64,000 bases of DNA from an uncultured Fibrobacterota bacterium (GCA_963753345.1 CAVWBU010000018.1:64001-128000), one strand, 5' to 3'. Positions 942 to 48,638 are shown, counted from the first letter of the stretch. Notes: a model not told the origin generated them from the letters alone. Translations and numbers: made by a program.

Positions 942-1097
942 GGGCGTTCCCCTCGTCTTCGTCAAGACTCAGGCTCGGGTCGGCCGTCCTTCCGGTCTCG
1001 GCCGCAGGCCTCGGGCCGCCTCGGCCCTATGGCCCACAGGGCCGGGTCCGGGCGGCATCCCGCTCTGGCGCGGACCTCCAGTCCGGCCTAACGCGCG
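942..1097 (+). repeat. Structured intergenic motif A, copy 1
   Basis: GGGCGTTCCCC...GGTCGG...CTCGGCC..GGCCTCG...CAGTCC..CCTAACGCG, shared with 7 other copies. Confidence 0.8.
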
Positions 1098-1158
1098 CAA
1101 ACCGTTATTGTCATCAGTCAATTTATTCTCGCGCCAATCGGAATGCTCAAGACCGTCG

Positions 1159-1267
1159 CCTCACCCCGGCCGCCATGGCGGCCACCCCTCTCCACAAGTG
1201 GAGAGGGGAATACAATCAGCATTTTGGACTCCCTTCTCCACGCTGTGGAGAAGGGCTGGGGATGAGG
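1159..1267. repeat. Inverted pair of REP-like palindromes (CCTCACCCC...CCCTCTCC-N-GGAGAGGG type)
   Basis: Hairpins CCCCTCTCCAC/GTGGAGAGGGG and CCCTTCTCCAC/GTGGAGAAGGG; outer ends CCTCACCCC / GGGGATGAGG; same family as 4366-4474. Confidence 0.75.
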
Positions 1268-1295
1268 CGAAACGATTGCGCGACCAATCGGCTCC

Positions 1296-1372
1296 TCAAC
1301 TTTTCAACTATTCAACTTCTTCTTCTCAACTCCTTGGCGTTTCAACTATTCAACGTTTCAACTTTTCAACTA
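1296..1372 (+). repeat. Low-complexity TCAACT tandem repeats (spacer before motif B)
   Basis: tcaacttttcaactattcaact...tttcaactattcaacgtttcaacttttcaact; similar tracts precede motif B at about 14400-14450 (minus) and 48720-48740. Confidence 0.7.
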
Positions 1373-1380
1373 TACTCCTT

Positions 1381-1487
1381 GGGTGCCCCCGCACAGGTGT
1401 CTGGTTCTGCCACTGCTTCCACTTGGGGTGCACCCAGGAGGGGGTAGCGGAGGACCGCAGGGCCGCAGCGAGGGGGATGCTTCCCCC
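1381..1487 (+). repeat. Structured intergenic motif B, copy 1
   Basis: GGGTGCCCCCGCAC...GGGGTGCACCC AGGAGGGGGTAGCG...GAGGGGGATGCTTCCCCC. Confidence 0.8.
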
Positions 1488-1502
1488 GCACAAATATTAT
1501 TA

Positions 1503-4290
1503 TTATCTAGCAATCACCACCCTTTTCACCATCTCCTGTCCGTCAACTAACGCATCTGACAACATATACGCCGTTGGCAAGCAATGACCTCAGGCCAACA
1601 ATAGGATGCCATCCTTCCGCCTGCAAGGACCTCGGAACACGCGCAACAATTCTTCCGCCCGCATCCACAACGTCAACCGACACTTTTGCCGCTCCGCTCA
1701 GATAATATTGTACCATCGCTCCAGTCTGTCTGATCCTGAAATCGAGTGCGGCGCGATGTGCGCCTTGTGGGGCAGGTAACAATACAGACACGGTGGGCGG
1801 CGGCGGCACGGGATACACGGTAAACGAGGTTGTTCCCTGGCCCAGCCCTGCCGAGGTCGCGGTGACGTTTACCGTGCCGGCGGTGAATGTGGAGCGGACG
1901 GCCACCTTGCACATGCCGCCTTCGGCCGAAAGGTTCGGGTCGCCGGGCGCATGATAATTCGCGCCGCCGGGGCCGATCATCTGATCGGCGCCTCCCCGGT
2001 AATTTCCCGGACCGCTAACGCTGAAAGTAATTACGTGGCTGTCCGTGGGGCACCAGGTGCCGTTTGCGTCCACCACCGTTGCGAGAATGAATGCCGCGTC
2101 CGTTGCATTGGCCGTGATCTTGAAGGTGTCGCCGGTGGCCGGATTCACGACCGGCGCGGCGACGGAAAGGGCAATGTGGTCAGGGGCGCCGGCGGTGACT
2201 TTCTGGTCGGAACACACGACGTTTCCATTGGCGTCCAAACCCTGGGCCGTAACTGTGCCTGTCTGCCAGGTTACGTTCCATGTACATTGATGCGCAAAAA
2301 GCGCGTTGGCGTTGCCCGTGTCCGGATACGGCGCTTGATCGTTGCCCTGTTTGACCCCGTTGACAAGCAGTCGCACCGTGGGGCAGTTGGAAAACGCGTT
2401 GACCGTGATCGCACCCGTTCGGTTCCAGTGGTGCGCGAGCGACACCACCGGCCGCACCGAATACGGCAGCCAGCACGCCTGGTATATTTTGTAAAGCATT
2501 TTCGGGATGCGGTTCCAGTCCATCATCGAACAGGCGAAATTCCTGCCCGTGCCGCTTTCGCCGGGCGATTCGGCCATGTACCACTGGCACATGCCGAAGG
2601 CCTTCACATACTTGCCGTATTTCCAGTTCTGCATGTAGACCTGGGCGAAATTGAGCTCGCCGTCGTAATCGAACCGGACTCCTTTGGTGTAGAACCCTTC
2701 GGCCCCGAAGGCGGGTTTGGTGGGCGCGATGCAGCAATGGAGGCCTCCCTCGCATCCGTCAAGAGAACAGGCTATCACCTGGTCCACCGCCATGTCGGAC
2801 TGGTCGTTGCCGCGGTCCTCCTGCGCGCGGGGCATGAGCGAGTCCCATTTGACCACCGTATCCCTGAGCGTCACATCGAACGCATGGTCGATGGGCGCGT
2901 TGCTGCATTCCCAGAGAAGGATGCTTGGATCGTTCCGGTCCCGCACGATCATGTCGCGATGGCATTCGCTCTTGAGCGCCTCGTTGAGCGAATCGGCGTG
3001 CGGCGTGCCGAGCGCCAGGTTTGCGGTCATGAACGAGCCTTCGTCGTCGCCGCTCGGCTGGGCGATCATGACGCCGAATGCGTCGCATGCTTCCACGAAT
3101 TCGTGCGAGCAGGTGGAATGGCCGGGCCGCCACAATCGTCCGCCGCAATCGGCGAGTGTCTTGACATCGCGCCACTGCTGTTCCTCCGGAACCGCGGTCC
3201 CCAGCGCGGGGTAGTCGTATCGGCCGGCCGCGCCCCAGAGATAATGGGGATGACCGTTAACAATGGGAAAATCGGTGTCCCACGTGAGGGTCCGGATGCC
3301 GAGCGGGCTGGTGAAAACGTCGACCGTCTTCCCGCCCACCTTTACAATGTGATACACTTTGTAGAGATACGGCCTGCCGTAGATGCTCGCATTGGGATAC
3401 CACAGGTGCGGGGTGTTTATGGTTGCCGTCTGGTCGAACACGTAGCACGCGCCTGCGTTGACGACATGGGAATCATCGGCGGACCACACCACGGTGCCGG
3501 CCGAATCCACCACCTTGGTGGTGAGGGCAACGGTGACGCCGCCGGCGTTTTCGTTCTGGACGTTGGTAAGGACCCGCACCGTGGCCGACGCATCCGAGGC
3601 CGCCGTCGTCGCCACGCACGTGCCCCAGTTATTGACAACGGAGAACACGTTGAGGGGAATGTGCACCTTGTCGGTCACGTGCATCCACACGGGCCTAAAC
3701 AGTCCGCCGTCGCCCTGGCCGAACCGGAAGTCGTTCGAAAAACTCGGATAGGTGAACCAGGCCGAGCTGGTGGCCACGCGGACCGCCAGAACATTGTCGC
3801 TGCCGTCGAGCTTGACATACTGGGTGATGTCCACCACGAACGGCAAAAAACCGATCACGTGCGTGGCCTGCGGGTTTACCGTGCTGTTGCCCGGAATAAA
3901 CGTTCCGTTGATGTACACCTGCGCGCCGACGTGCGCGCCTTCGAACTCGATAAAGATCTTCTTCCCCGAGTACCCGTTGTCCAAGGTGAAATGCTTACGG
4001 TACCAGCCGGTTATCCCCAAAAGCGCGCCTGCGTTCCCGCCTGCGTCCATGTTGAGGAAGGTGTTCATGTCGTTCCAGGTGTGCGGGATTCCGACCGTGC
4101 TCCACGCTGCGTCGCTGAAGGTCGTTCCCTGTGCGCCGATCGGATCGGACTGGATGAATTTCCACGGGGTGGCGCCGAGGTTGATTTTTGCGCGGTTGCT
4201 CGGTTCACCGTTGTAGTTTTGCGCAAGCGTTGCTGCGGAGAAAACGGTCAGGGTTATGATAAGTGAAATGACAGAGGTCGTTGATCGCAT
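1503..4290 (-). CDS. Glycoside hydrolase family 2 protein with T9SS-tail-like C-terminus; +1 frameshift near 1548 clips about 15 C-terminal residues
   Basis: 915-aa ORF with signal peptide, WYRKHF, FEGAH, LWYP, GIRT and RDRNDPS GH2 motifs; shifted frame continues LVDGQEMVKRVVIAR* to 1503, matching the paralog end VNGQDWYVKRVMMMR. Confidence 0.88.
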
Positions 4291-4365
4291 GGTTCCCCCC
4301 TTTTTTACTGATTAAAAACTATGCGTGCTGCGCACTGAGATGTGTCGATGGTTGCTCTGCTCCAA

Positions 4366-4474
4366 CCTCATCCCCCGGCCCCTTCTCCCGCAGGAGAAGG
4401 GGAGTAAGACGACCAAACTGAAATTCCCCTCTCCCTGTGGGAGAGGGGTGGCCGCGTCAGCGGCCGGGGTGAGG
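4366..4474. repeat. Inverted pair of REP-like palindromes
   Basis: CCTCATCCCCCGGCCCCTTCTCCCGCAGGAGAAGGGG ... CCCCTCTCCCTGTGGGAGAGGGG...CCGGGGTGAGG. Confidence 0.75.
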
Positions 4475-4508
4475 TTACACGAAATCGAAGGTCACTCCCT
4501 TTGCCGCA

Positions 4509-7316
4509 TCATCTCATCATCATAACCCGCTTCACATACCAGTCCTGCCCATTCACCGTGCAGCGGATAAGGTACACGCCGTTGCTCATCGCGTTGCCAC
4601 CCGCCGCACCAGCCCTGAGAGGAATCGCATGCCACCCGCTTTGTTGCTGGGCGTTCGGAACCCGGCACACGACCCTTCCGCTTGCGTCAAGAATGTCAAC
4701 GCTGACAAACGCTTTTTCAGTCATATAATATCTCACCATACCTCCTGTCATGGAGATGGCAAGCTTCGGCATTGACAAAGGCGCAACGGCGCGGACCGGC
4801 GCGTACGTTGCAACAGTGTCGCTGAAAGGATACACGGTGAACGACGTTGCCGCGGCCGCCCCCAGTCCCGGCGATGTCGCGCTCACGGTCACAACACCGG
4901 GAGTAAACGTTGCGCGCACCGCCACCTTGCACTTGCCGCCTTCGGCGGCAAGCTCGGGATCCATTGGGGAATGATAATAAAGCGGCATTCCGGTGGTGAC
5001 AAACTGGTCGCTGCCGCCGCGATAGCTGCCTGCCGCGCCGGAAACGCTGAAGGTGACAAAATGGCTGTCGGTCGGGCACCAGTTGCCGTTGGCATCAACC
5101 ACGGTCGCAAGAATAAAGGCGGCGTCCGAGCCATCGGCCATGATCTTGAACGTTTCGCCGTCCGGCTTCACCAGCGGCGGTTCAACGCTCAGAACAATGT
5201 GATCCGGAGCTCCGGCGGTGACTTTCTGGTCGGAGCACACCACGTTTCCGTTTGCGTCAAGGCCCTGGGCCGTCACCGTGCCGGCCGCCCAGGTAACGTC
5301 CCAGTAACACTCGAACGGAAGCTGCGTGGATGCGGCGTCGTTGGCGTCGCCGGTGCCGGTCCACGGGTTGGGCGTCTTGACACCCTGGCTGACGCCATTC
5401 ACCAGCAGCTTGACGCTCGGGCAGTTGCTGAACGCAAACTCCCGCACCGAACCCGAGCGGTTCCAGTGATGGGAAAGCGCGACAACCGGTTCGAGCGAAT
5501 AGGGCCTCCAGCAGGCCTTGTAGGCGTAGTACAGGAATTTCGGGATCCGGCTGAAATCGACCATGGACGATCCGAATGAGCGGCAGGGCGACTTGCCGTC
5601 TGCAAACGCCCTGTCCTCTCCCGGCGTTTCGGAGAAATACCATTGACAAAGGCCGAAGCAGTTCGCCTGGATGCTCTTGCGCCAGTTCTGGAGGAATTCC
5701 GCGGCATGATAGATTTCCCAGTCGTAGGCCGCCCGCTCCGAAGCACGGCCCCACGCCTCGGCGCCAAAAGCCGGGAGTTGCGGCTGTTGGCTATGCACTC
5801 CTATTTCACATCCGGTAAGGGTGCACGAGGCAATGTCGAGCGGCGACCACGGGGACCCGCGCACATTCTGCCTGCGGGGAGCAAGAGAGTCCCATGTTGT
5901 GCCGATGGCCCGTAACTGGTCGCACAACGTCGGATCGCAGGCGCCGTTGGACGTCTCCCAGGCAAGGATCGACGGATTGTTCCTGTCGCGAATCACCATG
6001 TCCCTGTGGACTTCCTGCTTGAGTCCCGCTTGATACGCAGAATAGTTGCCGGTGGCCCAGTTGTTTTCGCCGTCGCCGCTCGGCTGAATTATCATGACGC
6101 CGTACGCGTCGCATGCCGCAACAAAAACAGGGCCTTCCGCGGAATGTCCCGGCCGCCACAGGTTGCCGCCGCACCCGGCGGTCAGCTTGATGTCGCGCCA
6201 CACCTGTTCGGCGGGTATGGCGGTGCCGAGGGCCGGATAATCGTATCTGCCGGAAGCGCCCCAGAGAAGGTGCTTGTGGCCGTTGATATAGGGGAAATTC
6301 TGGTCCCAGGTGATGGTGCGGATCCCCAGCGGCGTTTCAAAAACGTCAAGCGTGGTCGCCCCGGCTTTCACAATATGATACACCTTGTACATCTTCGGCG
6401 TGCCGAACGTGCTGTTGTTGGGATACCACAGTTGCACCGGCGACGCGTCGCCCTTCTGGTCGAACACGAAGTTCGCGCCAGCGGCCACGGTCTGCGCCTG
6501 GTCCATGGACAACACCACGCTGTTGTTCGACGGATCAACCACTTTTGTGGTGAGAGAAACGGTCTGGCTTGCAGCGCTTTCGTTCTGAACGTTGGTCAGG
6601 ATCCGCAACGTGGCCGAGGTGCCGTTTGTCGCAAGGGTGGCCGCATAGGTTCCCCATTGGTTGACAACTGAAAAGACATTGGCCGGCACATGAACCTTGT
6701 CGGTGATATGCATCCACACCGGCCGGTAAATGCCCTGATCGGCCGAGCCGAACCGGAACACCAGAGAGAAGCCCGGCCAGGTGAGGAATGCGCTCTGGCC
6801 CACCCGGACGGCAAGGACATTGTCTGCGCCGCCGAAATTCAAATTGTAACCGGTGAGGTCCACAATAAAGCCGATAAATCCCAGCACATGCGTTGCCTGG
6901 GGATTGTAGGCGCTGTTTCCCGGAATGAGCGTGCCGTTGCAGTACACCTGACATCCCACGTGCACGCCTTCGAATTCGACGAAAATTTTTCTCCCCGAAT
7001 AGTTGTTGTCCAGCGTAAAGTGCTTCCGGTACCAGCAGGTGCCTTCGAACATCGAGCCGTCGCCGCCGCCGCTGATCTGGTTTTCGAAGGTGTCGGTGTC
7101 GTTCCACGTGTGGGGAATCCCGACGTTTTTCCATCCGGCGTCGTTAAACGCGACGGCCTGGGCGCCCGCGGGGTCGGACCGCTGGAATTTCCACGGCGTG
7201 GCGCCGAAATTGATTTTGACGCGGTTGCTTTGCTCAGGAACGTAGGTTTCGGCAAAACACACCGCCGTCACCAGGATCGCCATCAAAAGCGGGGTTGTAA
7301 AAAGTTGTGTGCGCAC
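4509..7316 (-). CDS. Glycoside hydrolase family 2 protein with T9SS-tail-like C-terminus
   Basis: 935 aa, GTG start after AAGGAGG; GH2 motifs; C-terminus SVDILDASGRVV...NGVYLIR. Confidence 0.9.
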   Translation of the reverse strand: MRTQLFTTPLLMAILVTAVCFAETYVPEQSNRVKINFGATPWKFQRSDPAGAQAVAFNDAGWKNVGIPHTWNDTDTFENQISGGGDGSMFEGTCWYRKHFTLDNNYSGRKIFVEFEGVHVGCQVYCNGTLIPGNSAYNPQATHVLGFIGFIVDLTGYNLNFGGADNVLAVRVGQSAFLTWPGFSLVFRFGSADQGIYRPVWMHITDKVHVPANVFSVVNQWGTYAATLATNGTSATLRILTNVQNESAASQTVSLTTKVVDPSNNSVVLSMDQAQTVAAGANFVFDQKGDASPVQLWYPNNSTFGTPKMYKVYHIVKAGATTLDVFETPLGIRTITWDQNFPYINGHKHLLWGASGRYDYPALGTAIPAEQVWRDIKLTAGCGGNLWRPGHSAEGPVFVAACDAYGVMIIQPSGDGENNWATGNYSAYQAGLKQEVHRDMVIRDRNNPSILAWETSNGACDPTLCDQLRAIGTTWDSLAPRRQNVRGSPWSPLDIASCTLTGCEIGVHSQQPQLPAFGAEAWGRASERAAYDWEIYHAAEFLQNWRKSIQANCFGLCQWYFSETPGEDRAFADGKSPCRSFGSSMVDFSRIPKFLYYAYKACWRPYSLEPVVALSHHWNRSGSVREFAFSNCPSVKLLVNGVSQGVKTPNPWTGTGDANDAASTQLPFECYWDVTWAAGTVTAQGLDANGNVVCSDQKVTAGAPDHIVLSVEPPLVKPDGETFKIMADGSDAAFILATVVDANGNWCPTDSHFVTFSVSGAAGSYRGGSDQFVTTGMPLYYHSPMDPELAAEGGKCKVAVRATFTPGVVTVSATSPGLGAAAATSFTVYPFSDTVATYAPVRAVAPLSMPKLAISMTGGMVRYYMTEKAFVSVDILDASGRVVCRVPNAQQQSGWHAIPLRAGAAGGNAMSNGVYLIRCTVNGQDWYVKRVMMMR

Positions 7317-7650: not shown

Positions 7651-8823
7651 ATGAGAATATCACATCAACCTGTATTGTTCGCTTTCGCGGGAATGGTACT
7701 GTTGGCACTCGCGGCCGGAAGCTTTGCAGCAGGCGGAACGGAGAAAATCGTGGTAACCAACAACTGTCCCATTACGCTGTGGATGCATTTCACCGAAATG
7801 CCGTATACCGCGGATATCAACGGCGGCAAGCCCCAGAAGATGCTTCCCAACACCACCGTGATATACGATTCGCTGCCGGATTTCGGCGCCGGAAGGTGCT
7901 GGGCCTATTACAAAGACCCCGGCGATGTGGTCAACAAATACGCACCCATTTCATCCTACAACGGTTTCGTGGAAATGACTGTGAGCGGCGGGCCCACCGG
8001 TGTGCAGAACTACAACATTTCCTTTGTCGACTATGCCACGCTGCCGGTCAAGGTGACGGGAGCCGGAAAAAACTGCATCCCGACCATCGTGCCCGTCAGC
8101 TTTGCCGAAATGCAGAACCAGCTCACAAACGGGTGCCCCACGCAGCTCGCCGATTACATTGACAGCCTGGGAATAGGCAGGTGTCTTTCTTCCTATTTCT
8201 ACTGCGTTCAGCCGGGCTTCGACACAGGGAATATTTACTGCAACAAGATGAAACTGGCCTACGGTTACGACGGCCTGGCCATCTACGGCGGTTCGTTCGG
8301 CGGCGCGTCGCAGTCGTTTTACGACTCGGTTGCCGGATGGAACCGGGGAACATTTGCCGGAGACGCGGATTCTGCCGATTACTACCTTGGCCCGGAACAG
8401 GATGCCAACGGCAAATGGGTGAAACCGTACAACCACTTTGCCAAGTGGGTTCACAAAGACCTCGACGCCGAAGTGTACGCCTTTGCCAACGACGACCATC
8501 AGAACCAAAGCGGGTTCCAGGCGTGCCCGAACTGCGGTGAGCTGGACATCACATGGTGCCCGTGCGAGGGATCATCCGTGTCGCAGGGCAAGTTCACGCC
8601 GATACTGCGCTTGCAGAATGAGAAGTTCATGCGGTATGCGCTCATCGCGCCCAGCGGGAAAACCGTGCGAACGGGCAACGCGACTTCGGTTGAAGAAGTT
8701 GGCCGGGCGCTTTCGTCCGGGCTTTCGCAGGGCGTGTATTATCTGGCGCTCTACGGCAGGGATGGAGCTTTGGCGGCAACAAAAAGGATCCTGGTTTCGG
8801 ATAGAATATCTCAAACAAGGTAG
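7651..8823 (+). CDS. Secreted GH64/thaumatin-like beta-1,3-glucanase with T9SS-tail-like C-terminus
   Basis: Signal peptide; NNCPITLW start, YNISFVD, YAFANDD, LDITWCP thaumatin/GH64-type motifs; LSQGVYYLAL tail. Confidence 0.7.
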   Translation: MRISHQPVLFAFAGMVLLALAAGSFAAGGTEKIVVTNNCPITLWMHFTEMPYTADINGGKPQKMLPNTTVIYDSLPDFGAGRCWAYYKDPGDVVNKYAPISSYNGFVEMTVSGGPTGVQNYNISFVDYATLPVKVTGAGKNCIPTIVPVSFAEMQNQLTNGCPTQLADYIDSLGIGRCLSSYFYCVQPGFDTGNIYCNKMKLAYGYDGLAIYGGSFGGASQSFYDSVAGWNRGTFAGDADSADYYLGPEQDANGKWVKPYNHFAKWVHKDLDAEVYAFANDDHQNQSGFQACPNCGELDITWCPCEGSSVSQGKFTPILRLQNEKFMRYALIAPSGKTVRTGNATSVEEVGRALSSGLSQGVYYLALYGRDGALAATKRILVSDRISQTR

Positions 8824-8835
8824 AGAGAGGGGAAC

Positions 8836-9987: not shown

Positions 9988-10018
9988 GATTTTTGCAACT
10001 GGAAGAAGAAATTAAATT

Positions 10019-10165
10019 GGGCGTTCCCCTCCCCCTCGACTTCGCTCGGGGTCGGGTCGGTTCTCCTTCCAGCTCGGCCTTTGGCCTCGTTGCCGGACCA
10101 CCCTATGCCTGTCGGCCGGGTCGTCCGGCAATGCGCTCTCGCGCACTTCCAGTCGCCCCTAACGC
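10019..10165 (+). repeat. Motif A, copy 2
   Basis: GGGCGTTCCCC...TTGCCGGAC...GTCCGGCAA TGCGCTCTCGCGCA...CCCTAACGC. Confidence 0.8.
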
Positions 10166-10179
10166 AAAGAGCAAATACG

Positions 10180-10479
10180 CAATCGCTGTTTCCTGCATTT
10201 CACCCATCAGTGGCGCAGCTGCGGCCGGCCATAACCGTCGCGCGGTCGTCGTTTGACAAAGTATTAAAAACAAACATGCTGTGGTACTCAATTAAGGGCG
10301 CATGCGGAACCAATCCCATACTGGGTTTGTATACGAGTACGGGAAAACGCGTGATGGAGCGCAGGATCGCAAATTCTTCGGGAAACATCCCGTTGTTCGG
10401 ATTGTCAAGAGGGATCTACTTCGTTGTTCTGAAGTCGGGACAATCGGTGCTTGCGCAGCGGGCAATGGTGGTCAGATAG
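10180..10479 (+). pseudogene. Orphan C-terminal remnant (T9SS-tail-like domain only)
   Basis: Frame encodes LGLYTSTGKRV...LSRGIYFVVLKSGQSVLAQRAMVVR* but has no signal peptide; upstream it runs into motif A. Confidence 0.55.
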
Positions 10480-14117: not shown

Positions 14118-14205
14118 AATTCGCGCTCAAAGAATGCAAGTTTCTTTAAATACAAAATATAAGGCTGGGCGCCCCGCAGCTTCACAAAACAGAAGAGACT
14201 CTTGC

Positions 14206-14394
14206 GGGGGAAGTATCCCCCTAGCTACGGCCTCCTCGGCCTTTGGCCTGCGGTGACGTTGTCATTTCATTCCTTAAGGGTATGGTAATGGTGCTTCGCA
14301 CCTTCTAGTATGTCGTTTGCCCTTTCGCTACCCCCTCGTGGGTAGCCGCCTTGACAAAGCGGTTGCGAGACCACGCATTGCTGTGGCGGCACCC
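14206..14394 (-). repeat. Motif B, copy 2
   Basis: Minus strand GGGTGCCGCC...GGCGGCTACCC ACGAGGGGGTAGCG...AGGGGGATACTTCCCCC. Confidence 0.8.
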
Positions 14395-14525
14395 GAGAAG
14401 AGTAGTTGATAAGTTGAGGAGTTGAGAAGAAAAGCGTTGAAAAATGCGAAGAAGAAGCCTGGCTGATTTATTGCAGATGCAGATTAGCGCTAGACAAGGT
14501 AATTGACTGAATAGAATTCTGTTGC

Positions 14526-14692
14526 CGCGCGTTAGGTGGACCGGAGGGTGAGCTGAAGCGAATTGCCGGCCGATCCCGGCCGCAGGCGATTGGGACGGTC
14601 CGGCAACGAGGCCGAACGGCCGAGCCCGCAGGGACGACGCCTCGAAGCACCCGAAGGGGTGGACCGACCCGAGTGGAGCGAGGGGAACGCCC
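14526..14692 (-). repeat. Motif A, copy 3
   Basis: Minus strand GGGCGTTCCCC...TTGCCGGACC...CGGCCGGCAA...CCTAACGCG, followed by GAATTCTATTCAGTCAA. Confidence 0.8.
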
Positions 14693-15012
14693 AAATTCAT
14701 TCAATTATAATGCTCTCTTTCATCAGGCCCGTTACACAATCGTATAACGGAAAATGCTTTTGCCGTCATCATTCCCGACCCCAACGCACGGAGGGTGTTT
14801 ATATTATTCCAATACGGCCCGGGGTGTTTCGCGAAAGTAAAGCAGGTTTAACGCCGACTGGAATGAAGCGAGACTGCCATGAAAGAAACCTCACCTTTTG
14901 TCTCCCCCTTTTAGGGCTCTCCTTGTCAAGCCAGGGAGGGCCCGGGTGAGGTTTTTTCCATTGCGGATTGGACGGAATCGGCAATGATCAATCCGCAAAG
15001 AGAAATGCCCTG

Positions 15013-32304: not shown

Positions 32305-32494
32305 TAATTCCTCGAAGCTTGCTTCGACTTTAACTCACCCCTACTCGCTTCGCTCGGCGACGCTTCGAAGCACCCGACGGGGTGTTTCCCCTCTCTTTTC
32401 CCTCTTCAGGGATGCCCGAAGGGGCACAAGAGAGTGGATTAAGGGGTGAGTTGTAGATTCTGGATTCCTCGCAGCTTGCTGCGGGGTTCTTCAA
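32305..32494 (+). mobile_element. Putative non-autonomous IS200/IS605-like miniature element
   Basis: Bounded by hairpins TCGAAGCTTGCTTCGA and CCTCGCAGCTTGCTGCGGGG; ends TTCAA; no ORF. Confidence 0.4.
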
Positions 32495-34648: not shown

Positions 34649-34685
34649 AAATGTCCAGCCTGTCTCAAAAGTCAAGAGAAGATCT

Positions 34686-34821
34686 GGGCGCCTCGCCGAA
34701 GACGGCGGCGGTTCTCCTTTCGCGCTCGGCTATTCGCCTCGTTGCCGGACCGCCCTAGTCGCCTGCGGCGAGGGTCGGCCGGCAATGCGCTCTGGCGCAC
34801 CCTTCAGTCCAACCTGGCGCG
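34686..34821 (+). repeat. Motif A, copy 4
   Basis: GGGCGCC...TTGCCGGACC...CGGCCGGCAA TGCGCTCTGGCGCA...CCTGGCGC. Confidence 0.8.
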
Positions 34822-34940
34822 TGGCATCAGTATTGTTCCACAATCAACATCTGCCTGACAAAAGAGAATTCAGTTGTGTCGATCCAAGTTGATCTCGGAT
34901 GGCGCAAGAAACATCTCTTGACAGAGTAAACTCCAGTTGG

Positions 34941-35103
34941 CGCGCGTTAGGTGGACCGGAGGGTGAGCAAAAGCGAATTGCCGCCTGACCACGGCCGAAG
35001 GCCATTGTGGCAGGCGGCAACGAGGCGATCAGCCGAGCCCGCTGGGACGACGCCTCGAAGCACCCGAAGGGGTGGACCGACCCCGCAAAGCGGGGGAACG
35101 CCC
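34941..35103 (-). repeat. Motif A, copy 5 (inverted relative to copy 4)
   Basis: Minus strand GGGCGTTCCCC...TTGCCGCCTG...CAGGCGGCAA...CCTAACGCG. Confidence 0.8.
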
Positions 35104-35121
35104 AGATCTGTACTCTACTCT

Positions 35122-35877: not shown

Positions 35878-35999
35878 GCGTAGGTTTTTCGATCGGCTTG
35901 TTACTGTGCCGGATTATGCCCAGACCGCCGGACAAGGGAACTTTTGTCGAGTCTGCGGCATGGTTGGCGGGCGAAAGCCGCAGGGCGCACAGCTCGCTC

Positions 36000-36269: not shown

Positions 36270-36450
36270 GGGCACGCTCCTTTGCGCTACGATCATAAAA
36301 TATATCTTTTTCTCCGATCATTCTTGTATTATCAAGAGAAAGCAGGAGCTTTTTGGTTCACCTTGCGTCAATCGGAATATATATTTTCTTGACCATATTC
36401 CCCGAGCAACTTCTTTCCGGGCAACATCTTCCACGCGAACGACGGCAGGT

Positions 36451-38453: not shown

Positions 38454-38548
38454 TTCGTCGTTCGCCGCGCTAATTTTGCATCGGTCAAGTCGCGGCCATT
38501 CGTACTCACCGGTGAAATAGGTCTCTTGGCGACAGGAATTTTCAACAG

Positions 38549-39715: not shown

Positions 39716-39740
39716 AAAGGCACGGGGAAAGCGGCATACC

Positions 39741-41108: not shown

Positions 41109-41110
41109 CC

Positions 41111-41953
41111 ATGACGATTCGCATGATGTCAATTGCCGCCGGGGCGCTTGCCGCCGCTCTTGCGTGGGCGCCGGCGCACGGGTTCGAACAGAAAGCGCCC
41201 CTCCCGGACACGCTCACCCTGGAGCAGACCCACCTCCTCGACTCGATCGATAACGCCCTGTACGTCAAGGAATGCTGCCGCGGAACGCTCGCCTCCTGCC
41301 TGAGCCGGAAAACGCCGTGCCCGGTTGCCCCGAGGCTCCATGCGTTTGTCAAATGGCTGGTCGTGCGGGCAACCGCGCCGTCGACGATATTCGTTGAGGC
41401 CGACAAGCGCATCGAAAGCCTCACCTCCACGCGAAAGGGCGTCATCGACACGGCCGGCTATGCCATTGCCGGCGACAGGCGCGCGCCGATCCTTATCGCG
41501 GGATACGTGAGTGCAACGTGCCCCATCTGCCACTTTGTGACGCACGAGATGTACGACGCCGTCACCTCGGGCGCGCTTGCCGGCAAGGCAAGGCTCATGG
41601 TGAAGCCGCTCGGCAACGGGTTTGCAAACCGGTCCCTCGTTGCGGCGAACTCTATGGGCAGGTTCTGGGATTTCTTTATCGCGCTTGCAAAGACCAAGGT
41701 CCGCGTGAGCGAGGAACTCATTTACATCGTTGCCGACAGCCTCGGGATATCGCACGGGGAGTTCAAGAGAAAAATAAACGCGCCCGAAACGGACTCAACG
41801 GTAAAGGCCTCCACGCTCGAGGCGGGGGTCAATGGCATCAACCTTACCCCGTCGTATTTTATTGACCGGGTGCGCTATGGAAGCTACAAGGACCCCATGT
41901 GGCTTATTGACGCAGCGGAATACAGGTACGAGACGCTGAAAAAGGCACGCTGA
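41111..41953 (+). CDS. Periplasmic DsbA/thioredoxin-fold protein with Cys-rich N-terminal domain
   Basis: Signal peptide; CPIC motif; TPSYFI cis-Pro-type loop; N-terminal CC-x6-C-x6-C. Confidence 0.7.
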   Translation: MTIRMMSIAAGALAAALAWAPAHGFEQKAPLPDTLTLEQTHLLDSIDNALYVKECCRGTLASCLSRKTPCPVAPRLHAFVKWLVVRATAPSTIFVEADKRIESLTSTRKGVIDTAGYAIAGDRRAPILIAGYVSATCPICHFVTHEMYDAVTSGALAGKARLMVKPLGNGFANRSLVAANSMGRFWDFFIALAKTKVRVSEELIYIVADSLGISHGEFKRKINAPETDSTVKASTLEAGVNGINLTPSYFIDRVRYGSYKDPMWLIDAAEYRYETLKKAR

Positions 41954-41991
41954 AGCCGGGGACCCTGCTTTCCGGCGGATGGACACGGTGC

Positions 41992-43515
41992 ATGAACATT
42001 GCCAACATCATTCTTATCGACATCGACAACGCCGACCTCGCGGGTCAGCTTGTGTCGCGCGGGTACACGCCGGTGCCGGTGCAGGACATTCCTTCCATCC
42101 TCGACGCAAAGGTTCCGTTCGCCGCGGTTCTGGTGAGCCAGGAGGCCATCGGCGACGCGTATGCCGAAGACATGGAGCGCCTGTACTTCGCGAGCGGCGG
42201 AGCGCCCATCGCCGTGTTTATTTACGATCCGTCAATCATCTCCGCGGGGCTCAAGCGCGCGCTCGACGAAGGCACGCTCGAGCGCGTGTACGCGCACGAG
42301 GTGGCAAGCGGCCTGGCCACGAGCAGAATAGACCGGTTGTATCTTTCCGCCGGCCTCGACACCGTCGTGCGCGCGTACCAGCAGCAGGCCGACGACAAGG
42401 ATCTTCTCCACAAGGAGATGAACCTTCGCAACCGCGTGATCGAGCACGGGAGGGAGTTCAACTCGAATATCACCGGGTCCATCACGTCCGGGCTCGTGGT
42501 GATCGATACCGGGGGAAACATATTCCTCATCAACGAATACGCCCGGCGTCTCCTCAGGCTTTCCCAGGGCGACATGCTGGGCGAACCGTACCGCCGGGTG
42601 TTTCCGGAAAAAGTGTCCCGGTTCGTGGAAAACGCGCTCAAAAGGATTGCGGGCCCGTGGCGGCTGCACGACATGAAGAAGATAACCGTGGACGAGTCGG
42701 TGCTGGAAATCGCCACGTACCGCATGAACGACAATGCGCACGATCCCATCGGGCTGCTCATGCTCATCAACGACATCACCGACCAGGAGAACACCACAGC
42801 CCAGCTTTACAGGTCGGAAAAGCTCGCGACCGTGGGCACCATGCTGTCGGGCATCGCCCACGAGCTGCGCAACCCGCTGTCGATCATCAGCGCCCGGTCG
42901 CAGATGGCGCTCAAGAAGAGCGAGTGGGACCGGGAGTGGGCCTTAAAGAACTTCGAATCCATCGACGGCCAGGTCAACCGCTGCGCGTCGATCCTCAACA
43001 GCATGCTCGACTTCACCCGGTACAAGGCCGTGCAGCAGGCGCTTCACAAAGTGGACGAGGTGCTCGACGAGACGCTCACCCACGTGGAGTACCAGAGCAT
43101 TTTCGACGACATCAAGGTTGAAAAAAACTACCAGACGGGGCTTGTGGTGTACGGCGACCGCTCCCGTTTTGTCCAGATATTCCTCAACCTCATTCTCAAC
43201 GCGGCCGACGCCATGTCCGGCAAGGGCGTGCTCAGGCTCACAAGTTCGCTAGAGGAGCAGTCGACGGTGCTCGTCGAAATCCACGACACCGGCTGCGGGA
43301 TAGACGCCGCGGTCAAGGACAAGATTTTCGATCCGTTCTTCACCACCAAGGAACCGGGCAAGGGCGCCGGCCTCGGACTCGCCGTTTCCTACAAGATTAT
43401 CCAGGATTCGGGAGGCGAGATCTGGTGCTCCTCCGAGCCCGGCAGCACGTCCTTTTTTGTCCGGCTCCCCTCGGGGAAGAGAAAGGTGTATGAAAGAAAA
43501 ACTGCTGCTGGTTGA
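41992..43515 (+). CDS. PAS-domain sensor histidine kinase
   Basis: [10 protein letters not shown]-box, NLILNA, DTGCG, FFTTK, GAGLGL. Confidence 0.92.
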
Positions 43516-44398
43516 CGACGAGGCCGATTTCCTCGACGTCCTGTCGGAATATCTGGTTGACGAAGGCTACACGGTGAGCACCGCGCTCAACGCCAAGGAG
43601 GCGCTCTCGCTCCTTTCGAAGGAAACGTTCGACCTGCTCCTGTCGGACATCAACATGCCCGGCATGAAGGGGTTCGAGCTCATCAAGGAGGCCCGGCGGC
43701 TGTACCCTTCGCTCAAGAGCGCGCTCATCACGGCCTACGACGTGCGCGACTACCTGTACATGGCGAAACATTACAACATCGGCAATATCATCACCAAGAC
43801 GACCCCGTTCAATTTCGACGAGGTGCTGCTGCTTGTCAAGAACATCCTCTCGGAGGAAGTGTTCGGCCTCGACCGCTATGTGCGCGGCCCGGTGAAGCGG
43901 ACCACGGTCCGGAGCACCAACGACATCGAGGGCGTCATCCAGAGCATCGTCGCCGAAATGCCGGACCTCAGGCACCGGCGGAAGTTCCGTCAGGTGCTCA
44001 ACGAGATCATCGTGAACGCGGTGTACTACGGCGCGAAGCACGAGCGGGGCGACAGCAAGGAATCGTGGCCGCAGGAGGTGACCCTTTCCCCCGAGGAGGA
44101 GATCCTCATCGAGTGGGGCGCGGACGAAGAAAAGGCCGGCGTCACGGTGTGCGACCAGAAAGGCATGTTGACAAAAGAGGAAGTTCTGTACTGGCTCGAG
44201 CGCAACGCCACCAAGGGCGACAACGGCATGTCGGTGGGCCTGCTCGACGAGCACGGCAAGGGGCTTTTTATCTCGCGGGAGACCATCGACCGGTTCATCG
44301 TAAACATCAAGCGCGGGCAGAAGACCGAGATCGTGATGCTTAACTATAAGGAAGGACTGTACGACGGGTACAGGCCGTTGTGGATACAGGAACTATAA
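43490..44398 (+). CDS. Response regulator with C-terminal HATPase/anti-sigma-like domain
   Basis: LLVDD, SDINMPG receiver; EIIVNAVYYG, DQKG, GKGLFI. Confidence 0.82.
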   Translation: MKEKLLLVDDEADFLDVLSEYLVDEGYTVSTALNAKEALSLLSKETFDLLLSDINMPGMKGFELIKEARRLYPSLKSALITAYDVRDYLYMAKHYNIGNIITKTTPFNFDEVLLLVKNILSEEVFGLDRYVRGPVKRTTVRSTNDIEGVIQSIVAEMPDLRHRRKFRQVLNEIIVNAVYYGAKHERGDSKESWPQEVTLSPEEEILIEWGADEEKAGVTVCDQKGMLTKEEVLYWLERNATKGDNGMSVGLLDEHGKGLFISRETIDRFIVNIKRGQKTEIVMLNYKEGLYDGYRPLWIQEL

Positions 44399-44420
44399 TA
44401 AAATGTGACAATATTTATAA

Positions 44421-44543
44421 GGGGGAAGGCTCCCCCTCGCTCCGGTCTCCTCGGACTTCGTCCTCAAATACCTCCGCTACCCCCTCCTGGGTGTCCGCCT
44501 TGACAAAGCAGCTGCAAGACCATGCATTGTTGTGGCGGCACCC
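44421..44543 (-). repeat. Motif B, copy 3
   Basis: Minus strand GGGTGCCGCC...GGCGGACACCCAGGAGGGGGTAGCG...GAGGGGGAGCCTTCCCCC. Confidence 0.8.
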
Positions 44544-44701
44544 ACGGGGAATTGTGGATTGAGGAATGTGGATTGAAGGCGATAGATGCGAGTGAAGTGA
44601 AGCAATCACCGGCAACGTTGACGTTTGGCAATTGACCGCGGATCTTCAGCGCATGCGAAATTGCGCAAGAAGAACTACTTGACGGAATAGATTCCGGCTA
44701 C

Positions 44702-44870
44702 CGCGCGTTAGGGGCGACGGAGTGGTCCCGCCGAAGCGGGATTGCCGGCCGACGACCCTTGGAAGCACCCGACGGGGTGCCCCGCCGCAACGCGGCTTCG
44801 GGGCGGTCCGGCAACGAGGCGAACAGCCGAGCCCGGAGGAGAACCGACCCCGCAAAGCGGGGGAACGCCC
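44702..44870 (-). repeat. Motif A, copy 6
   Basis: Minus strand GGGCGTTCCCC...CCCTAACGCG then GAATCTATTCCGTCAA. Confidence 0.8.
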
Positions 44871-44903
44871 ATCCCCCTCGACTTCTATTACTGCGTGTAA
44901 TAG

Positions 44904-45523
44904 TTATTCCGACAACCTGAACGGCGGATACTCATCCGTGATCAGCAGGAACGCGTACGCGTTCACCCGCAGCGACCACCGGAGCACGCCCACCACAAAC
45001 TCGTGCATCCCCGCCGGATATTTCCCGGTGAAGAGAATGGCGAACCATGCGATGATCGTTACGAACACAACGGAAATGCCCAGGAAGACAAGGATGAAAA
45101 TGTGCGGGATGGCAAGGAACCATTTCACCAGCGGCATCCCCCGCGACAATTCCTGCGCAGCGTCGGATAACGCAGTTCGATGTTGACGGACTGGTCTTCC
45201 GCAAGCGCCGGATACTCATCGCGCAGTATCAGGAGATAGGCGCCGATCCTTGTGGAGAATTTCGTGAGTGACACGTTCCAGTCGAACCACCAGCGGGGAT
45301 ATTTTCTCCTGAACAGAATGGCGAGCACCGTGGGAAGGAGCAGTATTCCCGGCCCCGCCCAGTGTCCGTTTTTCGAGGTGAACCCGACCAGAAGGACCAG
45401 GATGATCGCCACCGGTATGGCGCAGAATATCCTGAAAAAGCATGTGAGCCGGTCCGACGAGGCCGGGTGGGGAATGGCAAGCCTTGCAAAGGGAAAAGAA
45501 GGGACGGTCTGCTGCTCGTTCAT
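44904..45523 (-). pseudogene. DUF4389 membrane protein, frameshifted near 45165
   Basis: Two DUF4389-type halves (LFRRKYPRWWFDW...DEYP; LFTGKYP...DEYPPF); adding one base restores YPDAAQELSRGMPLVKW. Confidence 0.75.
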
Positions 45524-45820
45524 GGCTTCTCCTTTGTGAAGTAAGCTGATTTTATTTGATTGATTTGCTCTTGAAAGGATTGGGCTGACCCAAACAAAAT
45601 GACTTGGAAGTGGGCTTGGATATCAAACTACAATCTGCATTCGTCGCTGTCCATGTTGGATCTTAGGTTGGTTTTAACACTTGTGCGGGCTGCCATCAAC
45701 AGGATTAAGAGAAGGAAATACATCCCGATAGTTGATAGCTCAAAGAGGGATAATTGCCAATCACCCTAAATATACCGAACAGCGTAGATTGAATGAGTTT
45801 ACAGAATAGATTTCCTCTGC

Positions 45821-45961
45821 CGCGCGCCAGGCAGGACTGGAGGCCGCGCTGGAGCGCGGTGCCGCCCGGACCCGCCGCGTCAGCGGCGTAGGGCCGAGGC
45901 GGCCCGAGGCCGAAGGCCGAGACCGGAAGGACGGCCGCCGCTGCGAAGCAGCGGGGCGCCC
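45821..45961 (-). repeat. Motif A, copy 7
   Basis: Minus strand GGGCGCCCC...CCTTCCGGTCTCGGCC...GGGCCGCCTCGG...CCGGGCGGCA...CCTGGCGCG. Confidence 0.8.
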
Positions 45962-45977
45962 ATATTTTTAACACTCT

Positions 45978-46685
45978 TCATCCGCCCAGATACGCCGCTA
46001 TCACCTTGGGATTGTCCCGAATCTCGGCCGCCCTTCCGCTCAGCACGATGCACCCGGTTTCCAATACATAGGCGGAATGCGCAATAGTCAATGCCTTGTG
46101 CGCGTTCTGTTCCACCAGAAGAATCGTGGCGCCCTCGCCGTTGATCCTTTGGATCGTCTCGAACATACTTGACACAAGGGAAGGCGAGAGACCCATGGAA
46201 GGCTCGTCGAGCAGAAGAAGTTCGGCGCCGGAAACCAGGGCGCGTCCCACGGCGAGCATCTGCTGTTCCCCTCCGGAAAGCGTGCCCGCGGTCTGTTTCG
46301 CGCGCTCGCTAAGCCTGGGAAACAGGTCGAACACGTGCGCGAGCGCAGTTTCGAACGCGGCTTTGGGCTGACCCGCCGACGCGGCCACCTCCAGGTTTTC
46401 CATCACGGTGAGTGGGGAGAAAATGCCGCGGCCCTCGGGCACGTGCGCGATGCCCATTCTGGCGATGGTGTGGGCCGGAAGCCGCGCAATGTCTTTTCCT
46501 TTGAAGCGAATGGCGCCGGCCGAAGCACGGTGGAGGCCGGAAATGGTGCGCAGAATGGTCGATTTCCCGGCGCCGTTTGCGCCTACAATGGCGACAATAT
46601 GTCCCTTGTCGACGGAAAAGGAGACGTCGTCGAGCGCGGTGATGGAGCCGTAGGCGGCGCGGACGTGTTCCGCTTCAAGCAGCAT
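45978..46685 (-). CDS. livF: Branched-chain amino acid ABC transporter ATP-binding protein
   Basis: GANGAGKS, VPEGRGIF, LSGGEQQM, LLDEPSMGL, VEQNA. Confidence 0.92.
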   Translation of the reverse strand: MLLEAEHVRAAYGSITALDDVSFSVDKGHIVAIVGANGAGKSTILRTISGLHRASAGAIRFKGKDIARLPAHTIARMGIAHVPEGRGIFSPLTVMENLEVAASAGQPKAAFETALAHVFDLFPRLSERAKQTAGTLSGGEQQMLAVGRALVSGAELLLLDEPSMGLSPSLVSSMFETIQRINGEGATILLVEQNAHKALTIAHSAYVLETGCIVLSGRAAEIRDNPKVIAAYLGG

Positions 46686-47454
46686 GGCCGCCCTCTTTTC
46701 CGAGATAGGCCTCGATCACGCGCGGGTCGCTGCGCACGTCGGCGGGCGCGCCCTGCGCTATTGTTTCTCCAAAGTCAAGAACAACGATCCTTTGCGAGAC
46801 CTTCATGATCACGTGCATGTTGTGCTCGATGATGAGCATGGTGAGGCCGAAGCGTTCCTTGACCCACAGGATGGTGTCGATAAGGTCCTTTGCCTCGTTG
46901 AGGTTCATGCCCGCGGCGGGCTCGTCGAGCAGCAGCAGCGACGGCCCGGTGGCGATCGCGCGCGCGATCTCCAGGCGGCGCTGCTGACCGTAGGCCAGCG
47001 AGGAACTGCGCAGATCCGCCTTTGCCTCGAGCCCGAAAATGGACAACAGGTCGCGGCACCAGGCATCGAGGTCGTGCTCGCTTGTCCAGAACCGGGGCGG
47101 ATGGAACAGCGACGCGGCAAGGCCGTAGCCCGTACGGCGCCGTGCCGCCACCTTGATGTTGTCGATAATCGACATGTCGTGAAACAGGCGGATGTTCTGG
47201 AATGTCCTTGCAATGCCTTTGCGGTTCACTGCATGCGGCGCGAGGCCCGCCACCGACTCGCCGTTGAACACGATGTCGCCCCTGCTCGGTTTGTAGATGC
47301 CCGAGATCAGGTTGAACACCGTAGTCTTGCCCGCGCCGTTGGGACCGATGAGCCCAACAAGCTCGCCGCGCTCCATTGACAGATTAAAGTCCGCCACGGC
47401 GCACAGGCCGCCGAAGTAGCGGGTGAGGCCGGTTATGGTGAACAGCGGCATCAT
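46675..47454 (-). CDS. livG: Branched-chain amino acid ABC transporter ATP-binding protein
   Basis: GPNGAGKT, ARTFQNIRLF, LAYGQQRRLEIARA, DEPAAGM, IEHNM. Confidence 0.92.
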   Translation of the reverse strand: MMPLFTITGLTRYFGGLCAVADFNLSMERGELVGLIGPNGAGKTTVFNLISGIYKPSRGDIVFNGESVAGLAPHAVNRKGIARTFQNIRLFHDMSIIDNIKVAARRRTGYGLAASLFHPPRFWTSEHDLDAWCRDLLSIFGLEAKADLRSSSLAYGQQRRLEIARAIATGPSLLLLDEPAAGMNLNEAKDLIDTILWVKERFGLTMLIIEHNMHVIMKVSQRIVVLDFGETIAQGAPADVRSDPRVIEAYLGKEGGHAA

Positions 47455-48476
47455 GATTTCCTTTTTTCCACCATTTCCTTGTATTTCCACGGCACAAGGA
47501 ACGAAAACTCGCGCTCGCCCATGATCCCGTCACGCAGGAACCGCATCACCAGAATGAGGATGAGCGGGTAGATGGCCATGCGCCATGCCTCCAGGTTTAC
47601 AAGCCGGAGGCCTTCGGGTACGAGGGTGAAAATGCCCGCTCCCACGATGCTGCCCGCGATGCTGTGCGGCCCGCCTATGTACAGAAAGATGAGAATGTCG
47701 AGCGTCTTGAGAAAGCCGAAGTTGTCGGGATTGATGTAGCGGCTCAGGTGGGCAAACAAGGCGCCGGCGATGCCCGCGAAAAAGGCGCCGAGCGCAAAAG
47801 CGCACACCTTCTGGAACGTGGCGTTGACGCCCATGCAGGAAGCCGCGATTTCGTTGTCGCGCACGGCAATGCACGCCCTGCCGAAATGCGAATACACGAA
47901 GTTGCGCATCATCCAGAGCGAAAGAACAAAGAACGCGCCCACGTAGAATGCTCCGGAAAACGCGGGAATGGCGGGAATGCCGCGCGGCCCGCCCAGAACG
48001 TCGGTGAAGCGAAGCCCGGCCCGGATCACCTCGCCTGCGGCAAGCGTCACGATGGCAAGGTAATCGCCGCGCAGCCGAAGCGAAGGAAAACCGATGGCAA
48101 TGCCGAACGCGCCGGCCGCGGCGCCGCCCGCAAACACCGACAGCACAAACACCGCGTGGCCCGCAATAGACGTCGCGGCAAGCGGAGTGCCGAAAATCAA
48201 CTTCGGCAGCAGGGTGGTTATCGTCGCCGAGGCGTACGCGCCGATGGCCATGAATCCCGCATGCCCGAGTGAGAACTGGCCCGAGAAGCCGTTGATAAGC
48301 GCGAGCGACGCCGTGAGGATGATGTTGATTTCGATGAGAAAGAAGATGCGGGAGTAATACTGGAACTGGCGGTGGCCGGAAAACATTCCGAGCGCCGTTT
48401 GGGCGATAATGAATATGCCCAAGATCAGGAGGACCTTGGTCGTATGTTGTGGCTTTGATTCGATTTGTAAATGCAT
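47451..48476 (-). CDS. livM: Branched-chain amino acid ABC transporter permease
   Basis: GQFSLGHAGF, LRLRGDYLAIVTL, AVRDNEIAA. Confidence 0.9.
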   Translation of the reverse strand: MHLQIESKPQHTTKVLLILGIFIIAQTALGMFSGHRQFQYYSRIFFLIEINIILTASLALINGFSGQFSLGHAGFMAIGAYASATITTLLPKLIFGTPLAATSIAGHAVFVLSVFAGGAAAGAFGIAIGFPSLRLRGDYLAIVTLAAGEVIRAGLRFTDVLGGPRGIPAIPAFSGAFYVGAFFVLSLWMMRNFVYSHFGRACIAVRDNEIAASCMGVNATFQKVCAFALGAFFAGIAGALFAHLSRYINPDNFGFLKTLDILIFLYIGGPHSIAGSIVGAGIFTLVPEGLRLVNLEAWRMAIYPLILILVMRFLRDGIMGEREFSFLVPWKYKEMVEKRKS

Positions 48477-48496
48477 GTAAATAGACCTTAAGATTT

Positions 48497-48638
48497 GGGC
48501 GTCCCCGCTGCTTCGCCGCGGCGGCCCTCCTTCCAGGCTCGGCCTATCGGCCTCGTTGCCGCCTGCCGCAATGGCTCTTTGAGCCGCGGTCAGGCGGCAA
48601 TGCGCTCTGGCGCACCTTCCAGTCCTGCCTGGCGCGCG
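48497..48638 (+). repeat. Motif A, copy 8
   Basis: GGGCGTCCCC...TTGCCGCCTG...CAGGCGGCAA TGCGCTCTGGCGCA...CCTGGCGCG then GAATCTCTATTCAGTCAA. Confidence 0.8.

Follow-up and report, generated by a model that had tools for sequence, protein, structure and literature searches.

Dispersed repeats whose fold is under selection, among them REP, BIME, REPIN and ERIC, are known, and nearly all of them are simple hairpins. REP/BIME repeats and the REPINs that go with RAYT occur in high copy number, are non-coding and strictly intergenic, including sites within gene clusters, keep their fold by compensatory changes and form inverted mosaics of unlike subtypes. The ends of IS200/IS605 elements, PATEs and omega-RNA are marked by selection on the fold of one strand, a TCAA end after a small hairpin, and non-coding derivatives of a few hundred bases with a multi-stem region of about 150 nt. 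ERIC, Correia/NEMIS, BOX and the Bacillus cereus bcr repeats are dispersed and intergenic, measure 100-170 nt, have stable predicted RNA folds, are co-transcribed with their neighbours and are in some cases modular (BOX A/B/C). The repeat described here, Motif A, lies in 64,000 nucleotides of DNA from an uncultured Fibrobacterota bacterium (GCA_963753345.1, CAVWBU010000018.1:64001-128000; this whole stretch is called the window below), and appears to resemble the first two groups in the features just listed and the third in size, dispersal, intergenic position, modular build and stable predicted RNA fold, and perhaps in co-transcription. It also differs from each of them. REP units are single hairpins of 20-40 nt, whereas the Motif A unit measures about 150 nt, has five helices joined by conserved linkers and is tied to a second structured module (Motif B) and to 7-8-nt tandem repeats, and no RAYT was found among the sampled proteins. 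Unlike IS200/IS605, Motif A is accompanied by no TnpA or TnpB in 297 proteins, shows no orientation bias, has conserved sequence past its end and has no recognisable left end. The ERIC, Correia, BOX and bcr repeats are mostly long simple hairpins with terminal inverted repeats and target duplications, none of which was seen in Motif A, whose copies are far more diverged (median identity 66%) and yet keep a branched fold. The unit appears to be far larger and more branched than known REP/BIME-like repeats. On balance, Motif A is probably the core module of a mosaic, structured repeat family, so far undescribed, that occupies intergenic DNA in Chitinivibrionales-like Fibrobacterota and is REP/BIME-like and mobilised in trans.

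A covariance model (R1), built from five window copies and a hand-trimmed RNAalifold structure, found exactly eight Motif A matches in the 64 kb, scoring 70.8-169.3 bits, and the three copies held out of the model (c3, c5 and c6) still scored 70.8-88.3 bits, compared with 13.2 bits (E 0.052) for the best non-member match. The sequence-only reading had placed eight intergenic copies in both orientations, and R1 recovered the same eight, four on the plus and four on the minus strand, all outside gene calls, which were crude (open reading frame (ORF) calling) here and for all context counts. A 22-base gapped pattern taken from the copies matched the window five times and none of 100 shuffles. Scanning genome contigs with the pattern, with 10-kb flanks, yielded at least 68 loci, a sample biased toward DNA with copies, in which R1 gave at least 106 matches at E <=0.001. 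Among the loci listed, all R1 matches fell in three metagenome-assembled genomes (contig sets DATFYJ01, CAVSQB01 and PLWQ01) whose record titles give Chitinivibrionales or Fibrobacterota/Fibrobacteres, and R1 had no match in 11 pattern loci from other phyla, which are thus chance pattern matches. The window's own genome was absent from the loci listed. The closest among the matches listed was DATFYJ01, with 89-90% identity across glycoside hydrolase genes, and one CAVSQB01 locus (L016) was syntenic with the window at about 73-77%; a protein with a Fib_succ_major domain, encoded in the window, agrees with the phylum. The window and 53 loci (54 sources, 525,980 nt) gave 103 matches at E <=1e-15, of which 100 were distinct, so that Motif A is present in at least 100 distinct copies in 526 kb, eight of them in the 64 kb. 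The core measures about 150 nt, or 160-190 nt with leader and tail, and units across the family span 140-290 nt (median about 170), all built on five helices.

The fold is a five-helix junction in which the closing stem P1 (GGGCGTT/AACGC), the hairpin P2, variable in length and sequence, the GGCC hairpin P3, the long arm P4 (TTGCCGG.../...CCGGCAA) and the small hairpin P5 are joined by conserved pyrimidine-rich linkers. In the alignment of 100 copies, which was fitted to the model structure and so favours that structure, 86.4% of cells were paired versus 76.7 +/- 0.4% in shuffles, 23 of 36 pairs changed on both sides (18.4 +/- 1.4 in shuffles, 0/500 as high), and 311 cells changed on both sides versus 109 +/- 7 when shuffled and 25-101 with partners slid. 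The column pairs with the highest mutual information, computed without the structure, were almost all model pairs. Moreover, 37 disjoint nearest-neighbour pairs (75-89% identity) differed at a rate of 0.100 in paired columns and 0.239 in unpaired columns, and contained 58 double changes, 37 of which keep the pair, versus 13 expected if the two sides were independent. This excess of double changes indicates that the pairing of Motif A is under selection, or else spread by patchy conversion among copies; what Motif A keeps is pairing, not sequence. Selection on single-stranded structure had been claimed from the window alone, and the pair counts, the double changes between nearest neighbours and the structure-free mutual information agree in bearing it out. 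The helix switches noticed there recur among the 100 copies: in the closing stem, UA 66-68 vs CG 13-22 at columns 9/417 and 10/416; in the long arm, GC 58 vs CG 38 at columns 148/298 and CG 68 vs UA 27 at columns 152/296; and in the small hairpin, GC 45 vs CG 32 at columns 308/393. The linkers, which had been called largely conserved, are invariant or nearly so at CTCGGC, GCCTCG and (C/A)GTCC.

Several counts bear on which strand folds. On the strand reading GGGCG...AACGC, defined here as A(+), wobble pairs numbered 281 (GU/UG) vs 40 (AC/CA) overall, though much of this excess came from five doubtful pairs and the robust pairs alone gave 49 vs 34; single changes that keep the pair numbered 37 on A(+) vs 13 on the other strand. 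The sequence CTTCGG occurred 73 times on A(+), in 59 of the 100 copies and mainly in the P4 apex (38), P3 (14) and the P2 region (13), compared with six occurrences of its complement, and cUUCGg is an RNA-specific stabiliser. The other strand came out ahead in a crude count of GNRA-like loops (24 vs 156), which was contaminated by the pyrimidine-rich linkers, whereas the loops read from the alignment were UNNG/UUCG-like on the GGGCG strand. The folded strand is thus more likely to be A(+), from GGGCG to AACGC, and its folded form is more likely RNA. Two linkers, J2/3 and J5/1, share one anti-Shine-Dalgarno-like motif, CCYUCCRG, at alignment columns 64-87 and 394-415 (for example window 48524-48537 and 48614-48626), and its two variants, CCTTCCAG and CCCTCCGG, tend to co-occur in both linkers across copies; no pairing in the alignment was found that accounts for this joint change. 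An extra long-range helix joining the two linkers was rejected, for only column pairs 78/406 and 71/412 covary and the positions between them are unpaired, and the covariation reads better as one motif present twice.

The same features could describe an independently transcribed small RNA (sRNA) family in which each copy is its own gene, yields an RNA of about 150-190 nt from A(+) and acts in trans, for instance via two exposed CCUCC-type linkers, or as a protein-binding scaffold. The asymmetry in wobble pairs and cUUCGg, the conserved single-stranded linkers with two CCYUCCRG motifs that change together, an orthologous copy better conserved than its neighbouring genes and the A-rich leaders with TAnAAT-like hexamers upstream of several copies would all suit such genes, and self-contained genes fit the absence of orientation bias. 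However, no consensus for a promoter or terminator is seen at the copies, an sRNA family with about one member per 8 kb would be unusually large, the tail-to-tail doublets and the fixed order of A and B described below look like repeat architecture, the c8 composite sits within a cluster of transporter genes with a start codon 18 nt away, and orthologous sites swap element content between species. We regard an sRNA family as unlikely. It is quite unlikely that Motif A is a new structured RNA class both mobile and functional, that is, a five-helix A(+) RNA of about 150 nt with two co-varying anti-Shine-Dalgarno-like CCYUCCRG linkers that would spread via a TCAA-cut single strand or an RNA copy and serve as scaffold for an RNA-guided, HUH-type or global RNA-binding partner.

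The sequence-only reading treated Motif A as a lone element, and this has to be corrected: it is one module of a larger mosaic. Three arrangements are seen: Motif A by itself, Motif A leading an A-(YTCAACNN)n-B composite some 400-560 nt long, and Motif A in a tail-to-tail doublet; the GGGCG end of Motif A faces outward in all three. Motif B lies 34-252 nt downstream of 41 of the 100 copies, in the same orientation in 41/41. Its core of about 80 nt, of which the window and loci contain 37 distinct full-length examples, has a long-range stem GGGTGCC(G/C)CC...GG(C/G)GG..ACCC with a G/C swap, after which come AGGAGGGGGTAGCG, then a hairpin that varies and, at the end, a GGGGGA..TCCCCC hairpin, and it has an exposed AGGAGG. 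Between the two motifs, (Y)TCAACNN units number 0-10 per element and are spaced by 8 nt (37 times) or 7 nt (16 times); the 41 spacers contain CAAC 116 times vs GTTG 7 times. Some loci have a variant built of CAATCCN units. Twenty of the 100 copies form 10 tail-to-tail pairs with gaps of 6-148 nt, and among the 100 copies no head-to-head or tandem pair was found within 400 nt. The arms of these doublets are 0.53-0.67 identical, belong to unlike subfamilies and usually have different closing-stem types, a heterotypic arrangement that resembles the alternating REP types of BIMEs.

The tail GRAATCTATTCWGTCAA comes after P1. The sequence-only reading had most copies ending in GTCAA, and this holds exactly for five of the eight window copies (one has ATCAA, one GTAAA, and c2 has none) and more widely for the family, in which 59 of the 100 copies have GTCAA no more than 45 nt after P1, 46 of these at 21-22 nt (about five expected by chance). 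A small AT-rich tail hairpin before GTCAA consists of 3-4 AT pairs with few covariations and is weakly supported. Most copies have a conserved box, GCGCCAATCGG, beyond GTCAA, and in a second tail type similarity ends at GTCAA. About 10 copies are preceded by a stub of about 30 nt from another copy, broken in the P2 loop; at L032 and L014 the break follows directly after GTCAA and leads into an A-rich leader, which is not so for the stub at L034.

These ends bear on whether Motif A is a PATE-like derivative of the IS200/IS605 type, that is, the right end or an omega-RNA-like scaffold of a TnpA/TnpB element, cleaved on the 3' side of TCAA and inserted next to a TCAA target, again on its 3' side. 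The fixed distance of 21-22 nt from closing stem to GTCAA in 46 copies, the end of similarity at GTCAA in the second tail type, at least two stubs that break at GTCAA and join a new leader, and the strand-specific, tandem TCAAC units are what such an element would leave, and the size and multi-stem fold of Motif A recall TnpB-type scaffolds. About 20 of 87 flanks also contain TCAA 13-24 nt before the core, but the enrichment is only about two-fold by a rough estimate. In addition, neither Y1 transposase nor TnpB was found in 297 proteins, the copies are oriented 4:4 in one replichore-like stretch, GCGCCAATCGG is conserved past GTCAA in most copies and so is not a variable guide, and Rfam gave no match, HEARO included, which is presumably the one family of this type in that database. 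An IS200/IS605 derivative seems very unlikely. A replication-orientation bias of the IS200/IS605 kind was likewise rejected on the four plus and four minus copies under a steadily rising skew, a small sample. The broader suggestion of a REPIN-like element moved by an HUH transposase fared unevenly: tail-to-tail doublets, the fixed-distance GTCAA and the stubs that break near GTCAA lend it some architectural support, whereas the lack of the enzyme in 297/423 proteins, the balanced orientation and the conserved sequence past GTCAA speak against it.

Motif A is strictly intergenic, and its GGGCG end is close to a neighbouring gene. Where the upstream neighbour is on the same strand (49 cases), 25 elements begin 8-30 nt past its stop, and where it is divergent (43 cases), the distance to its start ranges from -13 to 359 nt (median about 70). 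On the other side lies further non-coding DNA (median about 270-320 nt). In co-directional gaps 26 copies are sense and 29 antisense, so there is no orientation bias to the flanking genes, and with 18 copies in convergent and 10 in divergent gaps all gap types are occupied. Gaps with Motif A have a median length of about 500-640 nt vs 44-149 nt for those without. The neighbours are ordinary or housekeeping genes, including dxr, uppS, cdsA, an M50 protease, recA and fab genes, and an all-against-all BLASTP of the 423 ORF-called proteins, searched for a recurrent neighbour protein, returned only glycoside hydrolases and other ordinary paralogues.

The frequent start just past an upstream stop (25 of 49 same-strand cases) could mark a lineage-specific, conserved-sequence terminator or insulator, purely a host element and not mobile, which would also be in line with the pyrimidine-rich tracts after the fold on both strands and with canonical terminators not being enriched in the region (21 terminator-like sites vs 17.7 expected in the scan, which also gave five promoter-like sites vs 4.3). 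Such an element is highly improbable, however, considering that 43 copies adjoin a divergent gene start, that the c8 composite lies inside a gene cluster 18 nt from a start codon, that no U-run directly follows the closing stem, and that subfamilies are swapped at orthologous sites. Identity with an intrinsic terminator was rejected on a scan of 34000-49500, in which no terminator-like site included P1 of any of the five copies there, and the two such sites overlapping copies were internal small hairpins. A promoter reading of TTGACnGAATAGA on the other strand was also set aside, as the spacings, judged by eye, do not suit a -35/-10 pair.

Orthologous gaps, when compared, show some Motif A sites kept in place and others with a replaced core, and their element content changes more quickly than the genes do. 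In L039 the gap corresponding to window 4291-4508 is occupied by a complete A-B composite, whereas the window has other hairpin repeats there; the flanking genes are 89-90% identical. L034 and window c1 share a composite in which an inserted hairpin module is about 97% identical and the A cores only 63%, and L034 carries a stub of an older copy that resembles the 5' end of c1. The window copy c5 shares 59% identity with its counterpart in L016, and five compensatory double changes separate the two. The copies at L041 9956 and L006 11517 are 87% identical, differing mostly in the tail, in 3.2 kb of surroundings that are 79% identical, while the neighbouring pair, L041 11511 and L006 9939, is 71% identical with three compensatory changes. 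In the two syntenic comparisons with the window that were searched for exact empty sites, the whole gap was replaced and no precise boundary was readable.

Considering these results, we propose how a REP/BIME-like, trans-mobilised family could arise and persist. An enzyme supplied in trans may spread and reshuffle Motif A between intergenic sites, as for REP/BIME and REPIN, and would read the folded single strand and, with it, the conserved end GTCAA. Copying or conversion would continue only for those copies in which the fold is kept. In place, Motif A would be transcribed with its neighbours, and its stable fold could punctuate mRNAs through 3'-end protection or partial termination.

Several results weigh against this proposal, in addition to the bias of the fitted alignment given above. 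The identity between copies peaks at 89% in all pairwise comparisons of the 100 copies and in nearest neighbours, whose median is 83%, so there is no sign of recent transposition, and the turnover could be recombination between copies. The conservation of the L041 9956/L006 11517 copy points to a host-level function at that site. A Pfam scan of the 297/423 ORF-called proteins of the window and loci found no Y1/RAYT, TnpB, reverse transcriptase or DDE transposase, and the sole hit of a mobile-enzyme kind was a phage-type integrase, truncated, at the end of a contig. Inspection by eye and position counts showed neither terminal inverted repeats nor target duplications in the flanks. The cumulative GC skew of the window rises steadily in a single run, inside which the copies, a small sample, lie 4:4 in orientation, an arrangement that strand-biased single-strand transposons are not known to show. 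Predicted folding energy did not separate the strands, A(+) being stabler in 43 copies and the other strand in 56. Finally, neither sigma-70-type promoters nor canonical terminators mark the copies consistently, and so give no direct support to the proposed role in mRNAs.

Motif A is a branched five-helix repeat of which at least 100 old, diverged copies keep their pairing and follow strict assembly rules with Motif B. For the study of a new fold it supplies natural covariation data in quantity, it shows mosaic intergenic elements to be plentiful in a little-studied phylum, and it raises the testable question of which enzyme or RNA-binding partner reads the fold; should that partner turn out to be an HUH or RNA-guided protein, its system would gain in Motif A a new non-autonomous companion.

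The search of the whole window against Rfam 15 at gathering score gave no match, and the stretches holding c6, c7 and c8 gave only chance-level matches at E <=10, the best sub-threshold ones being sbcD (19 bits, gathering 40) and Pistol (15 bits, gathering 34.5). The novelty proposed for Motif A thus stands with respect to Rfam 15, while the suggested likeness of its termini to Flavo-1 is not supported, no Flavo-1 match appearing in either search. BLASTN of the c8 composite against plasmids and phages gave no match, and among the matches listed in a full-text literature search no title or abstract describes repeats in Fibrobacter. Other identities were considered and rejected. A coding reading, in which an NTG at the 5' end opens long ORFs (for example 940-1587), is countered by stem-length indels and compensatory changes, which argue against a peptide. 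The integron attC site (5'-RYYYAAC...GTTRRRY-3') has the opposite order to GCGTT...AACGC on both strands, and the copies lie in both orientations between unrelated housekeeping genes. A classical miniature inverted-repeat transposable element of the DDE type does not fit, only the 5-7 bp closing stem being inverted, with an A-rich leader and no direct repeats (inspection and position counts). A REP/REPIN unit consisting of a single short palindrome of about 20-40 nt is far smaller than Motif A with its five helices.

Four window copies begin A-B composites. Copy c1 (940..1122, +; R1 158.3 bits), with core and a tail ending in GTCAA, is the 5' module of the composite at about 925-1500, and the divergent GH2 gene 2-883 starts 56 nt from its GGGCG end. 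The tandem 7-8-nt (Y)TCAACNN repeats, detected by a repeat search (family D16), lie between the c1 tail and its Motif B at 1292..1378 (+), and the Motif B core follows at 1374..1453 (+; nhmmer E 9e-20), with later hairpins to about 1500. Copy c3 (14502..14694, -; 88.3 bits, held out of the model), with a mini-hairpin module of about 30 nt after P2, opens the composite at about 14200-14710, whose Motif B core is at 14322..14401 (-; E 4.7e-20). Copy c6 (44678..44872, -; 70.8 bits, held out), with the mini-hairpin module in the long-arm apex, opens that at about 44410-44885, with the Motif B core at 44471..44550 (-; E 4.6e-22). Copy c8 (48495..48663, +; 169.3 bits) opens that at about 48480-48890, with the Motif B core at 48739..48817 (+; E 4.4e-15); this composite is flanked by two permease genes of a branched-chain amino-acid ABC transporter cluster, to both of which it is antisense, and gene 47451-48476 has its start codon 18 nt from the GGGCG end of c8. 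Shorter (Y)TCAACNN runs occur in other composites, including window 14400-14440 and 48700-48735 (both approximate). A solo Motif B core is found at 62259..62339 (+; E 1.4e-19), and R1 finds no Motif A nearby.

The remaining four copies lack this arrangement. Copy c2 (10017..10193, +; 146.6 bits) has an intact core, a degenerate tail without GTCAA and no B module, and begins 29 nt past the stop of gene 8836-9987. Copies c4 (34684..34848, +; 146.6 bits) and c5 (34917..35105, -; 73.6 bits, held out) are the left and right arms of a tail-to-tail doublet with a gap of 68 nt and an arm identity of 0.67; c4 has a GCGCC-type closing stem and a tail ending in ATCAAC, while c5 is of the GCGTT type, has a mini-hairpin insert and begins 16 nt past the stop of the rhomboid gene 35122-35877, and the orthologous L016 site also has a copy. 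Copy c7 (45797..45963, -; 142.7 bits), of the GCGCC type with tail GTAAA, begins 14 nt past the stop of the ABC ATPase gene 45978-46685.

The mini-hairpin module of about 30 nt consists of CACCCC-TTCG/GTCG-GGGTG plus a CTTCGAAG-like flank and is inserted after P2 or in the P4 apex, at about 14632-14661 in c3, 35045-35074 in c5 and 44750-44779 in c6. It also occurs alone, in reverse orientation, at 32355..32384 (+; repeat search, family D18), and looks like a nested small repeat. Other GC-rich hairpin repeats, at window 1159-1290 and 4370-4474 and at about 960-1020 in L034, read CCTCACCCCGGCCGC...GCGGCCACCCCTCTCC and then the partner GGAGAGGGG; they fill other intergenic gaps and sit within the c1 composite.

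Elsewhere in the window, three tandem paralogous GH2-type glycoside hydrolase genes occupy 2-7316 and two tandem GH64-like genes 7651-9987, and gene 18556-20571 contains three 264-nt tandem repeats (19207-19998) that correspond to fibronectin type III domains. A 28-nt inverted repeat (93% complementary) at 20600-20627 and 21502-21529 brackets 874 nt of lower G+C that hold an ORF at 20674-21477 (267 aa, no Pfam match), and this bracketed stretch may be a small insertion element.

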